Shown: piece by piece, positions 7,843-11,069 of the stretch | Position numbering within the stretch: the stretch's first letter is position 1 | Layout: each line of letters opens with the position of its first letter | DNA from: Promethearchaeota archaeon | Lineage (GTDB): Archaea > Asgardarchaeota > Lokiarchaeia > Sigyniarchaeales > SOKP01 | Direction of reading: 5' to 3' | Assembly (NCBI GenBank): GCA_030606485.1 | Contig: JAUWGH010000004.1 | Span: forward strand, 390,001-422,000 | Length of the DNA: 32,000 bases | The notes under the pieces: generated by a model | Database searches by the model: none | What the model saw: only the letters and a program-made list of their open reading frames with translations | What the model was told of the DNA's origin: nothing | Program-made: the position numbers and the translations under genes

Positions 7843-8952
7843 ATCAGAAAAATAAAATTTGCAATTGCTGGAATAGGAAATGTTGGATCTGCATTAATTC
7901 AAGGAATAAAATATTATGAAAAAATTGAAGAAAATAATTTATTTACTCATGGTTTAATGAACCCCAAGATTGGTAATTATACTCCGTATGATTTAGAATG
8001 CGTTTGTGCATTTGATATTAATAAAAAGAAAATTGGCAAGGATATTCATGAAGCTATATTCACACCTCCAAATTGTTGCCAAATTTTTGTAGATCCAGAG
8101 AGTCTCAATAAATCTGGAGTTCTTGTTAAAGCTGGACCAATTTCCGATGGATGTGCAAAGCATATGAGAGATTCATTTTATTGTTATGATGAATCAGAAA
8201 TAAAACCGGTTGATATTGTTCAAGAATTGAGAAATTCTAAAGCTGAGATTTTATTAAATTTATTACCAGTGGGAAGCTTTAAAGCATCAAGGATTTACGC
8301 CCAGGCTTCAATAGAGGCAGGTTGTGGATTCATAAACTGCATACCTGAATTCATTGTGAGCGAACGAGTTCTTGGAGATGTAGATTGGGTGAAAAAATTT
8401 GAGGATAAAAATCTTCCATGTGCAGGGGATGATATCAAGTCTCAAGTTGGGGCAACTATACTACATCGAGTTGCAACAAAATTATTTTTAGATCGAGGTG
8501 TTATAGTCAATGATACTTTTCAGCTTAATATTGGTGGAAATACAGATTTTGAAAATATGAAAAAAGAGTCGAGATTAATAACTAAAAGAAAATCGAAGAC
8601 TTCTGCGATAACAAGTGTTTTGCCTTATCCAATAAAATGTAGAATAGGACCCAGCGATTATGTTCCCTTTTTAAAAGACAAAAAAATTTGTTATATTCAA
8701 GTTAATGGAATAACATTTGGGGGATTACCTCTAACTCTTGATACAAAATTAAAAGTTGAGGACTCTCCAAATTCTGCTGGGGTGATATTTGATTTACTAA
8801 GAGTGATGAAGATTGCTTTAGATCGAGGTATTTCAGGACGATTAAACAGTATCAGTTCATTTTGTTTTAAGCATCCTCCAATTCAAGCCCCTTCTGATAT
8901 AATAGCCAAACAATGGGTTCAAGAATTTATTGAAGGAAAAAGAGAGAGATAA
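7843..8952 (+). CDS. ino1: myo-inositol-1-phosphate synthase, probably with a non-canonical start
   Basis: LNLLPVGS, GCGFINCIP, AGDDIKSQVGAT, QLNIGGNTDF, KVEDSPNSAG motifs. The Rossmann motif AIAGIGNVGSALIQG (from 7861) lies in frame upstream of the first ATG (7957). In-frame stop at 7801; GAAGGGGA SD-like motif 7 nt before ATC 7843. Confidence 0.92.
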   Translation: MRKIKFAIAGIGNVGSALIQGIKYYEKIEENNLFTHGLMNPKIGNYTPYDLECVCAFDINKKKIGKDIHEAIFTPPNCCQIFVDPESLNKSGVLVKAGPISDGCAKHMRDSFYCYDESEIKPVDIVQELRNSKAEILLNLLPVGSFKASRIYAQASIEAGCGFINCIPEFIVSERVLGDVDWVKKFEDKNLPCAGDDIKSQVGATILHRVATKLFLDRGVIVNDTFQLNIGGNTDFENMKKESRLITKRKSKTSAITSVLPYPIKCRIGPSDYVPFLKDKKICYIQVNGITFGGLPLTLDTKLKVEDSPNSAGVIFDLLRVMKIALDRGISGRLNSISSFCFKHPPIQAPSDIIAKQWVQEFIEGKRER

Positions 8953-8960
8953 ATTGATAG

Positions 8961-9036
8961 GTGCATTCAGTTTGGGGCGACAAAATCATTGCCAAGAGCA
9001 TTAGCTCAGATTGTCACTGAGTACATCATCATGCAT
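8961..9036 (-). ncRNA. Box C/D methylation-guide sRNA; D guide predicts Gm2251 (E. coli numbering) in the 23S rRNA P-loop
   Basis: Minus strand: AUGCAU-GAUGAUGU(box C)-ACUCAGUGACAAU-CUGA(D')-GCUAA UGCUC UUGGC-AAUGAUUU(C')-UGUCGCCCCAAA-CUGA(D)-AUGCAC. 5-bp terminal stem, correct box order, 12-13 nt guides, GC-rich island in AT-rich intergenic DNA. Confidence 0.85.
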
Positions 9037-9059
9037 ATTTACTTAATTTAAAATCTCTA

Positions 9060-9332
9060 TTAAATTTTATTTTTAAATTTTACTCGTTTTTTAAATTCGA
9101 TTCCTCTTTCAGTTATGTAAAATTCTTCATTATTTTTGCTTATTAAATTAAGATCAATTAAAACTGGTAGTCTTCCATTAATGCATTCCATCGGGACTCC
9201 AGAAAGTAATTTAATCGTTTCTTTTTTCCTTGCCCCTTTTTCGATAGCAAGGAGAATCTCAAACCCCATATCTCCTATTAAATATTTCAAGTTTATACTG
9301 TCATTTGGGGGTTTTTTTTTGTTAGCAGACAT
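9060..9332 (-). CDS. Small winged-helix DNA-binding protein
   Basis: EILLAIEKG...TIKLLSGVPMECINGRLPVLIDLNLISKNNEEFYITERG fits a wHTH with wing; last coding gene of the kinase/SCP2/fusion run. Confidence 0.7.
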   Translation of the reverse strand: MSANKKKPPNDSINLKYLIGDMGFEILLAIEKGARKKETIKLLSGVPMECINGRLPVLIDLNLISKNNEEFYITERGIEFKKRVKFKNKI

Positions 9333-9374: not shown

Positions 9375-11069
9375 TTAAATTTTCTTGCTTTCTTTGAAAA
9401 TCTCGAATATATCAAGTTCATAATCCACAGTCTCTTCTGGTAAAGATTTTGGGGTTCCAAGTAATTTCGCAAAAATATATATTTTTGCAGTTCTTTCTAG
9501 CATCTTTAAAACGTCTAATGCTCCTTCTATGTGGCTCCCGCAACATATATTTCCATGATTTGATAGAATAACAGCGTTTAAATCACCTAAAGCTTTAATT
9601 GCATTTTCGGCAATTTCTTCAGAGCCAGCTTCACCATAATCTGCTACTTTTACTTCGCCCCCAATATATGGAACAAATTCTTCAACGACAGGTGGAAGAT
9701 TAAGATCCAAAAGACTTAATATAGTAGAATAAACACCATGAGAATGGATGATTGCTCCAACATCAGGTCGATTTTTATAAATAGTTAAATGCATTATTTT
9801 TTCAACCGATGGATTTCTATCACCAATTAAAACATTTCCATCAAAATTTAGAACCAAAATATCATTAGGGTTGATCATTTCATATTTAACATTACTAGGG
9901 GTTATTACAATTTTTTCTTCATTTGGAATTCTAATAGAAAGATTTCCAGAGGAGCCAGAGATAAAACCTTCCTTTAATAATTGTAATCCAACATCTGCTA
10001 ATTTTTTTCGTAATATATGATATGGTATATAAGAATCTTCTTGTTTCTCTTTATAAGTGATTCCAATTCTTTCTAAAACTTCAGGATTTGCTATATTTTT
10101 AGGGGGTTTTTTATCTAATATTGATAGAACATCATCAACAATCATTCTCGAATGTCTTTTTATAACATTTACTGTATTACCGCCATAATGGGGTAATATA
10201 ATTACATTTTCAAATTTTAGAAATTCATTATCTTCATCAATTGGTTCGAGTGGAAAAACATCGAGAGCTACTCCAGCAATTTTTTTATCTTCTAATGCTT
10301 TTTTCAAAGCTCTATAATTCAAAACACTACCTTTTGCTGTATTTATCAAGTAAGAACTAGGCTTCATTAAAGAAATCATTTTTTCATTGATTAAGTTATT
10401 AGTTTCTTCTATTGGTGGAAGATGCAGGGTTATAAAATCTGATTTACTCATCAATTCTTCCAATTCTACAAGAGTTCCAAATTCTTTTACTTTATCTTTA
10501 TAAACAAAAGGATCAGTAATTAGTAAATTAACCCCAAAAGGAATTAATCTTTGTGCTACTAATTTTCCTATATTACCAAATCCAATAACTCCAACGGTCT
10601 TACCTTTAAGTTCAATTCCTTCAAACTTTTTATAATCTCTAACCCAATCTTCTAGATCAATTAGTTCAAAATCCTCTGAATGTAAATATTTATCTACTCT
10701 AGTTAAATTTCTTGCAAGAGTTAAAATTAAACAAAGAGTTAGATCTGCTACTGAGTCAGAATTTCTTTTTGGAGTATAAATAACAGGTATTTTTTTTTCA
10801 GATGCCGTTTTTAAATCAACATTATTCGGGTCATTTCTACATGAAGCGATTATCTTAAGAGAAGATTCTTCAATTACTCTTTTTTTTACATTATCACCCT
10901 CACAAATGAAAATATCAATTTGCTTTAACTTTTCGATTAATTCTTCTTCATCAAAATACAATTGTCCAGATTCTTTCCATGTTTCATATATAACTTCCAT
11001 TTTTTCTTTTAATCGATTAATTTCCGATTCGATAAGTTCTGCAGTAATTAATGCTTTCAGGAGAGACAC
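9375..11069 (-). CDS. Fusion: D-2-hydroxyacid dehydrogenase (SerA-like) + class II aldolase (FucA-like)
   Basis: N-part: GKTVGVIGFGNIG, ITDP, DFITLHLP, INTAKG, DVFPLEP, ILPHYGG. C-part: SSGNLSIR, ITPS, NPSVEKIMH, HSHGVY, LSNHGNICCG (Zn ligands and catalytic Glu present). GTG start. Confidence 0.9.
   Translation of the reverse strand: MSLLKALITAELIESEINRLKEKMEVIYETWKESGQLYFDEEELIEKLKQIDIFICEGDNVKKRVIEESSLKIIASCRNDPNNVDLKTASEKKIPVIYTPKRNSDSVADLTLCLILTLARNLTRVDKYLHSEDFELIDLEDWVRDYKKFEGIELKGKTVGVIGFGNIGKLVAQRLIPFGVNLLITDPFVYKDKVKEFGTLVELEELMSKSDFITLHLPPIEETNNLINEKMISLMKPSSYLINTAKGSVLNYRALKKALEDKKIAGVALDVFPLEPIDEDNEFLKFENVIILPHYGGNTVNVIKRHSRMIVDDVLSILDKKPPKNIANPEVLERIGITYKEKQEDSYIPYHILRKKLADVGLQLLKEGFISGSSGNLSIRIPNEEKIVITPSNVKYEMINPNDILVLNFDGNVLIGDRNPSVEKIMHLTIYKNRPDVGAIIHSHGVYSTILSLLDLNLPPVVEEFVPYIGGEVKVADYGEAGSEEIAENAIKALGDLNAVILSNHGNICCGSHIEGALDVLKMLERTAKIYIFAKLLGTPKSLPEETVDYELDIFEIFKESKKI

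Follow-up and report, generated by a model that had tools for sequence, protein, structure and literature searches.

Methylation of G2251 in the P-loop of 23S rRNA (E. coli numbering) is near-universal, and in bacteria it is carried out by RlmB, a stand-alone Gm2251 methyltransferase of the SPOUT family, which forms the same product as that considered here but is a protein-only enzyme. In yeast, the corresponding Gm2619 is guided by the P-loop snoRNA snR67, and many eukaryotic snoRNAs have a stem between boxes D' and C'. For archaea, E. coli G2251 has been predicted to be sRNA-guided in three organisms, the guides for the equivalent alignment position G2520 being Pca sR36 in Pyrobaculum, Tte sR7 in Thermoproteus and Mka sR13/sR45 in Methanopyrus (PMC4644070). 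These resemble the RNA described below in being archaeal C/D sRNAs aimed at the same P-loop G, whereas their second guides are directed to U2544 and G2490 (alignment numbering) and not to helix 89, and their usual K-loop architecture is unlike the stem-closed C'/D' motif found here. A further C/D sRNA, Sac-sR110 from Sulfolobus acidocaldarius, was identified by RNA-seq and is listed with no predicted targets (Dennis et al. 2015, PMC4644070, Additional file 1). In a manual pairing of its guides against the 23S rows given for Sac in Additional file 3 of that work, the D' guide, CGCCGCUCCAGU, formed 11 contiguous pairs with the P-loop with N+5 on G2251, and the D guide, CAACGCGACGAG, formed eight Watson–Crick pairs with helix 89, UCGUCGCG, with N+5 on U2460. 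Alignment position U2734, which is tabled for the sR17 of another species (PMC4644070), would be the same U2460, judging from the offset given by Mka sR17. No described C/D sRNA from Asgard archaea was found in the literature searched.

The window analysed in this study is a stretch of 32 000 nucleotides from contig JAUWGH010000004.1 of a Promethearchaeota archaeon. Within it, a 107 nt spacer, bounded by a winged-helix gene and by the inositol-1-phosphate synthase gene convergent with it, holds what is likely to be a dual-guide archaeal box C/D sRNA with its own promoter, two kink-turns and guides to G2251 and U2460. Sac-sR110 has the same two target nucleotides, but with the guides swapped, D' being directed to the P-loop and D to helix 89; at about 56 nt, it also differs in having a short D'–C' linker without a hairpin. 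As the similarity between the two RNAs outside the guides and boxes is nil, the likeness is no proof of common descent.

The RNA, of about 74–76 nt, is read on the minus strand at 8961..9036 as AUGCAUGAUGAUGUACUCAGUGACAAUCUGAGCUAAUGCUCUUGGCAAUGAUUUUGUCGCCCCAAACUGAAUGCAC, and all four boxes recognized in the first-pass annotation of the window occur on that strand in the order C, D', C' and D. The 5' strand of the terminal stem, UGCAU (9031..9035), pairs with the 3' strand, AUGCA (8962..8966). Box C is AUGAUGU at 9023..9029, a register supported by the family alignment, in which it is aligned to the invariant AUGAUGA of the homologues; a second AUGAUGA overlaps it three bases upstream (9026–9032). 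Next come the D' guide, ACUCAGUGACAAU, of 13 nt (9010..9022), box D' (CUGA, 9006..9009), which is canonical in the host genus, and the inner hairpin GCUAA-UGCUC-UUGGC of 15 nt (8991..9005), followed by box C' (AUGAUUU, 8983..8989), the D guide, UGUCGCCCCAAA, of 12 nt (8971..8982) and box D (CUGA, 8967..8970), all on the minus strand. The anatomy is that of an archaeal box C/D sRNA, with boxes C (AUGAUGU/AUGAUGA, 9023–9032) and D, an internal D'/C' pair, guide spacers of about 12 nt and guide–rRNA complementarities that contain the fifth nucleotide within the duplex, of 9 bp for the D guide and 8+4 bp for the D' guide. Between C' and D the spacer measures exactly 12 nt, both in the host and in almost every family member; between C and D' it measures 12 nt in most genera, 13 nt in the host and 15–16 nt in the genera that carry an insert.

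In the AUGAUGU register both motifs have the textbook kink-turn layout, with a canonical stem abutting the A of box D or box D', a 3 nt bulge in the C or C' strand and, beyond it, tandem G.A/A.G pairs and a U.U pair. At the C/D motif the 3 nt bulge GAU is followed by G.A/A.G, U.U and G–C, and the stem, bulge and tandem sheared G.A pairs would give a kink-turn at the terminal stem. The second kink-turn would be formed by D' CUGA and C' AUGAUUU, with the bulge AAU (8988–8990), the sheared GA (8986–8987) and the closing hairpin; its C' (UGAUUU) lacks the G partner for the C of D'.

Homologues were sought by BLAST of 60 relatives and by scanning one genome from each prokaryotic species for an exact pattern. 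The scan gave 113 matches, 96 of them Asgard loci with the same anatomy, including a UGACAA in the D' guide that the pattern did not force; the other 17, from GC-rich bacteria and without this anatomy, were discarded as chance matches. About 95 homologues are found in Loki-type Asgard genomes. The pattern required ATGATG, CTGA and UGUCG at the start of the D guide, and the invariance of boxes C and D in the resulting 69-sequence alignment (A1) is therefore not independent evidence. Outside the pattern, the homologues derived from BLAST and from a covariance model agree on the constancy of both boxes, with box D being CUGA in 15/15 and 5/5 sequences, respectively. Conservation of the boxes in relatives, on which the first-pass annotation had made its assignment depend, thus extends to boxes C and D, and boxes D' and C' are degenerate beyond their GA: D' occurs as AAGA, GUGA, UAGA, UUGA and GUUA, with GA mostly kept, and R-U-G-A is conserved in C'.

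The two helices proposed from the sequence of the window, a 5 bp terminal stem UGCAU/AUGCA with a 3 nt bulge and a 5 bp stem–loop GCUAA/UUGGC between D' and C', are both present, the former covarying across the family and the latter within the family of the host. In the 69-sequence alignment, 97.4% of the cells of the two helices are paired, compared with at most 53% when the partners are slid, and double-sided changes are found in 141 cells compared with 37 in shuffles, with none of 500 shuffles reaching the observed value. Terminal-stem column 6/86 is UA in 34 sequences, CG in 16, AU in 15 and GC in three, and column 10/85 is UA in 36, AU in 30 and CG in three. In the inner hairpin, double-sided changes occur at four of the five pairs, and 97.3% of the cells are paired. 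The earlier proposal that both the C/D and the C'/D' kink-turns are closed by stems is therefore supported by covariation in each case.

The covariance model, R1, was built from the 69 homologues without the pairing of the guides. In the host genome it has a sole match (G000:C2:398959-399037, window 8959–9037) with 76.9 bits and an E value of 6.6e-19. It detects a single copy in each of 23 of the 25 genomes sampled from the host's family (f1) and in both genomes of f2, the sister family to which Lokiarchaeum belongs, with two weak matches only elsewhere in the phylum sample, and on this sampling the sRNA is an order-level family and not a phylum-wide one. A spread over the Thor, Odin, Hermod and Hod groups, as the titles of some records imply, was rejected on the same result. 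Several near-identical loci (L087 in DATKTW010000128.1, L040, L043, L045, L054 and others) are titled as Thor-, Odin-, Hermod- or Hodarchaeota, and one as a Nanopelagicaceae bacterium; these labels look unreliable, since the GTDB-based sample finds the family in one order only.

The same data bear on the possibility that there is no RNA gene at this position, but only chance motifs in an AT-rich spacer or a part of a 3' UTR or terminator. In favour of this possibility, RNA-seq gave no support for a transcript: of the two RNA runs listed for a 701 nt stretch, one shares 7% of its words, with contigs that cover 8700–8830 only, inside the inositol-phosphate synthase gene, and the other, with a share of 0.00, yielded nothing, and for a 96 nt stretch no RNA run was listed. 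No Rfam family reaches its gathering threshold in the window, the best weak match of the host sRNA being to snoTBR7 (16.6 bits versus a threshold of 45), with snR67 at 11.6 bits versus 55. However, the element is conserved across the whole order between diverged flanks, has invariant boxes and two helices with compensatory changes, and is present once per genome, which leaves the absence of an RNA gene barely credible. The identification as a box C/D guide sRNA, made earlier from the sequence of the window, is borne out by the agreement of its anatomy, its covariation and the register of its D guide on G2251.

The stem-closed C'/D' motif had been described in the first-pass annotation as more snoRNA-like than the K-loop usual in archaea. 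The hairpin itself is real; its resemblance to eukaryotic snoRNAs calls for a more cautious reading, since Lokiarchaeum-type copies lack the hairpin and have a short linker of 8–10 nt instead, and it may have been elaborated within a lineage and not inherited as a eukaryote-like trait. The hairpin loop GCUC (8996–9000; A1 columns 47–53) is kept in most of the 69 copies and the stem covaries freely; the loop could pair with GAGU/GAGC of helix 89 (2464–2467), in the manner of the 5' end of the D' guide. At loci L070 and L085 (Lokiarchaeum ossiferum CP104013.1) a box-C-like motif, CAAUGAUGAC / CGAUGAUAC, lies about 25–35 nt upstream of the sRNA and could belong to a second, tandem C/D sRNA.

The targets of the two guides were sought in the rRNA of the host, as had been suggested, and the best sites are the P-loop for the D guide and helix 89 for the D' guide. 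The host 23S rRNA is encoded by a single gene (G000:C6:71617-74798). Its 16S gene is split between the end of one contig (G000:C2:450044-451002) and the start of another (G000:C6:1-407), from which it follows that contigs C2 and C6 join; the rRNA genes are unlinked, as about 71 kb separate the 23S gene from the 16S gene. The host P-loop reads GGCUGGGGCGGCUCAC, within the 23S sequence GUUUGGCUGGGGCGGCUCAC. Positions 3–11 of the D guide form nine contiguous pairs with U2249–C2257 (LSU 2467–2475), eight Watson–Crick and one G–U, and positions 1, 2 and 12 are unpaired. Read directly on the host 23S, N+5 falls on the second G of GGGG, that is on G2251 (host LSU G2469), exactly as first predicted. 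The extent of the duplex had been overestimated: ten contiguous pairs were expected, or 11 Watson–Crick pairs given a compensatory U2248–A2256 pair, and since that pair is absent from the host 23S the duplex has nine pairs, the smallest number at which the earlier assignment was allowed to stand.

The P-loop is the best site of the D guide in the host 23S at −19.4 kcal/mol, the next being at −17.2 kcal/mol, and it is the top 23S duplex in five of ten genomes compared with their own 23S and the second or third in three more. Six of 200 shuffled D guides reach the energy of the host guide somewhere in the rRNA, and the complementarities of both guides, taken in the host alone, are only modestly unusual. 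The case for the P-loop as the target rests on the conservation of exactly the paired guide positions, on the variation of the unpaired positions 1 and 2 in the family and on the functional nature of the site. The P-loop is identical in all 23S sequences recovered from the host's family, and a variant guide, UGUUGCCCCAGA, in which one Watson–Crick pair becomes a wobble and a G–C pair is gained at position 2, is still compatible with it. The consensus of the Trypanosoma snoTBR7 (RF00295) is identical to the core of the host D guide, UGUCGCCCCA, in the same register relative to box D, and both have a U opposite G2256, but the other guide differs; the shared universal target would impose such an identity. 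The D guide is degraded in one genus (g9) and in genome G018. The altered D guides of the g9 copies (L196 in G012 and L198 in G022) and of the G018 copy (L197), whose D' guide pairs perfectly with helix 89, are GUCAUGCCCCAAAA, in which box D is preceded by four A's, and ACGCUACCCCAAU; the pairing of these altered guides with the P-loop is weakened or shifted in register.

The D' guide, for which the first-pass annotation had offered no assignment, has a target in the 5' strand of helix 89. In the paired form ACUC[A]GUGACAAU it makes 12 pairs, two of them G–U, with host GUUGUCGC-GAGU (LSU 2677–2688, E. coli 2456–2467), with one bulged guide A, and N+5, at the usual spacing, is U2460 (host LSU U2681). 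Helix 89 is its best site in the 3182 nt host 23S, at −14.1 kcal/mol compared with −10.2 kcal/mol for the next, and the top D' duplex in eight of the ten genomes compared with their own 23S. Since 15 of 200 shuffled D' guides match the energy of the host guide somewhere in the rRNA, the assignment also rests on comparative evidence. In most 23S sequences of the family, E. coli positions 2457–2467 in the 5' strand of helix 89 read UUGUCACGAGU, and in the host genus they read UUGUCGCGAGU; the UGACAA of the guide is complementary to 2457–2462 and the conserved ACU(U/C) to GAGU at 2464–2467, with a variable guide base in between, opposite 2463. Across genera, changes in the guide are matched by changes in the target: three genomes (G015, G027 and G026) have the guide GUGACAA opposite C2463 in the target UUGUCACGAG, and the D' guide of G018, CGUGACAAC, makes ten Watson–Crick pairs with helix 89. 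In genus g1 the target is UUGUCGCG, with G2462, and the guide of G004 is GCGACAA, the target in this case being taken from other genomes of the genus because the 23S of G004 itself was not recovered.

Other partners of the D' guide were considered. No UUGUCA partner for the invariant UGACAA was found in the host rRNAs or in their flanks and spacers. tRNA-Asp was rejected, as its anticodon loop CUGUCAC gives only seven pairs with the host guide and fewer with the family consensus, and a perfect 12-mer match to the guide at C8:340338 is not a tRNA and was treated as chance. No tRNA gene is predicted at any of the other genomic matches to UUGGGGCGAC (C5:235102, C10:442694 and C10:189353). One 23S fragment in the bin G021 (contig C72, L193/L033), reading GGCACCCC and UUGUCUCCCC, resembles other families; the bin also holds a family-type fragment (contig C11, L183) with GGCUCAC and UUGUCGCGAG, so that C72 is probably from another organism in a mixed bin and its UUGUCUCCCC was not counted against helix 89.

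The D' half could alternatively be no guide at all, but a strand that folds on its own molecule as UGACA/UGUCG or CUCAG/CUGAG, leaving a single-guide half-mer whose guide is masked until loading. RNAalifold places the UGACA/UGUCG helix in 69/69 sequences, and in one variant (the G004 copy, L006) its U.G pair becomes C–G. Nevertheless, the helix is otherwise invariant and thus without a covariation signal, its 3' arm UGUCG was a requirement of the search pattern, and it is broken in the G026 copy (GCUUG), in which the pairing to the target is kept. The complementarity of the two arms can be traced to helix 89 itself, as UUGUCGC of that helix equals the last C' base and the first six bases of the D guide (UUGUCGC). 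The 5 bp CUCAG/CUGAG option of the host, which had been raised in the first-pass annotation, is specific to the host genus, and across the family this fold-back lies within the permutation controls (p = 0.19). Pairing with helix 89, in contrast, explains the conserved UGACAA and ACUY as well as the lineage-specific changes, and we regard a folded, non-guiding D' half as highly improbable and retain helix 89 as the target.

In several genera an insert of 3–4 nt lies between UGACAA-N and box D' (A1 columns 32–37; L010–L012, L048, L163 and L169); with the spacer extended in this way to 15–16 nt, N+5 is shifted to the margin of the duplex with helix 89. The insert is variable. As these inserts shift N+5 and the D guide is degraded in g9 and G018, methylation at both G2251 and U2460 is probably not universal across the family. 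Retention of the helix 89 pairing in genera in which N+5 is out of register, together with the degenerate D' boxes of the family, would fit an sRNP that acts mainly as an assembly chaperone, keeping helix 80 and helix 89 of domain V together during folding of the catalytic centre, with methylation confined to the D site or secondary; such roles have been proposed by Dennis et al. for sRNAs with guides to rRNA sites that are distant but spatially close (PMC4644070). However, the spacing from UGACAA-N to D' is canonical in the host and most genera, the D' box of the host is a perfect CUGA and U2460 is also at N+5 in Sac-sR110, so that we consider a predominantly chaperone function distinctly unlikely. 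A broader form of this idea, in which the two guides are a conserved bridge between H80 and the 5' strand of H89, an ancient TACK/Asgard chaperone with methylation as a by-product, draws on the pairing that is kept where D' could not direct methylation and on the same targets being addressed by Sac-sR110 with swapped guides; it is a possible but unlikely reading, under which the lineage-specific hairpin with its GCUC loop could be an extra contact site. Methylation guidance by both halves in the host is the reading that we prefer.

With regard to its expression, the sRNA lies 23 nt downstream of a coding run, as originally noted, the stop codon of the upstream ORF being at 9062–9060. This ORF is the winged-helix (HTH_45) gene of 90 aa (9060..9332, minus strand; Pfam PF14947, E 1.8e-6), which is syntenic with the RNA and outside it. 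On the other side is the myo-inositol-1-phosphate synthase gene (7957..8952, plus strand). A TATA-like UUUAAUAG following an A-run, a candidate BRE/TATA element, is located at 9057..9064 on the minus strand and overlaps the winged-helix stop codon. The A-run and TTTAATAG-like motif of the host starts about 29 nt before the first base of the stem, and a AAAAWTTAAWTAG-like motif is found at the same distance upstream of the sRNA in all lineages, which suggests that it is a promoter. A homologue of the winged-helix gene adjoins the sRNA in 80 of 82 unique loci and is convergent in 74 of them; only in the host genus and the Lokiarchaeum group does it precede the sRNA on the same strand. Homologues of the sRNA downstream of this gene in other Asgard genomes, which the first-pass annotation had proposed to look for, are thus confined to these two groups, whereas proximity to the gene is general. 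Because the BRE/TATA-like motif is conserved and the neighbouring gene is convergent in 74/82 loci, transcription from an own promoter appears most likely, in place of the processing from a polycistronic transcript that had first been suggested; in the arrangement of the host, read-through from the winged-helix gene may also occur. The synteny of the winged-helix gene and the sRNA (loci L002–L198) is tight and flips in orientation, for no obvious reason. Upstream of the winged-helix gene is a 564-aa fusion of D-2-hydroxyacid dehydrogenase and class II aldolase (9375–11069, minus strand), noted earlier as part of a catabolic cluster.

The host encodes the proteins of an archaeal C/D sRNP: fibrillarin (C6:149001-149663, 259 bits), with Nop5 beside it (C6:149803-150477, 215 bits), and L7Ae (C5:40860-41099, 94 bits). 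A search for an RlmB-type enzyme, which had been recommended together with the sRNA prediction, gave a single SpoU-family gene that scores 160 bits as TrmJ/YjtD versus 34 bits as RlmB, and an RlmB-type enzyme is thus lacking. The presence of fibrillarin, Nop5 and L7Ae, and of no SpoU gene other than the TrmJ-like one, makes an RNA-guided origin of Gm2251 plausible. In the mechanism that we propose from these comparisons, the sRNA would be transcribed from its own promoter and would fold into two kink-turns, with that of C/D closed by the terminal stem and that of C'/D' by the covarying hairpin. By analogy with characterized archaeal C/D sRNPs, the kink-turns would be bound by L7Ae, Nop5 and fibrillarin. 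The D guide, paired with the P-loop (E. coli 2249–2257), would then place fibrillarin on G2251, and the D' guide, paired with the 5' strand of helix 89 (2456–2467), would place N+5 on U2460. The two sites lie on either side of the peptidyl-transferase centre.

In conclusion, the host sRNA is a genuine, well conserved and ordinary dual-guide C/D sRNA of a known kind, and it leaves the understanding of C/D guides unchanged. It adds to the Loki-type Asgard archaea an unannotated, order-wide family of box C/D sRNAs with both targets assigned, and its pair of targets, the P-loop and helix 89, recurs in Sulfolobus. These findings will help in annotation and in the design of RiboMeth-seq experiments with cultured Asgard strains, and they suggest that Gm2251 in this archaeon is RNA-guided and not the product of an RlmB-type enzyme.
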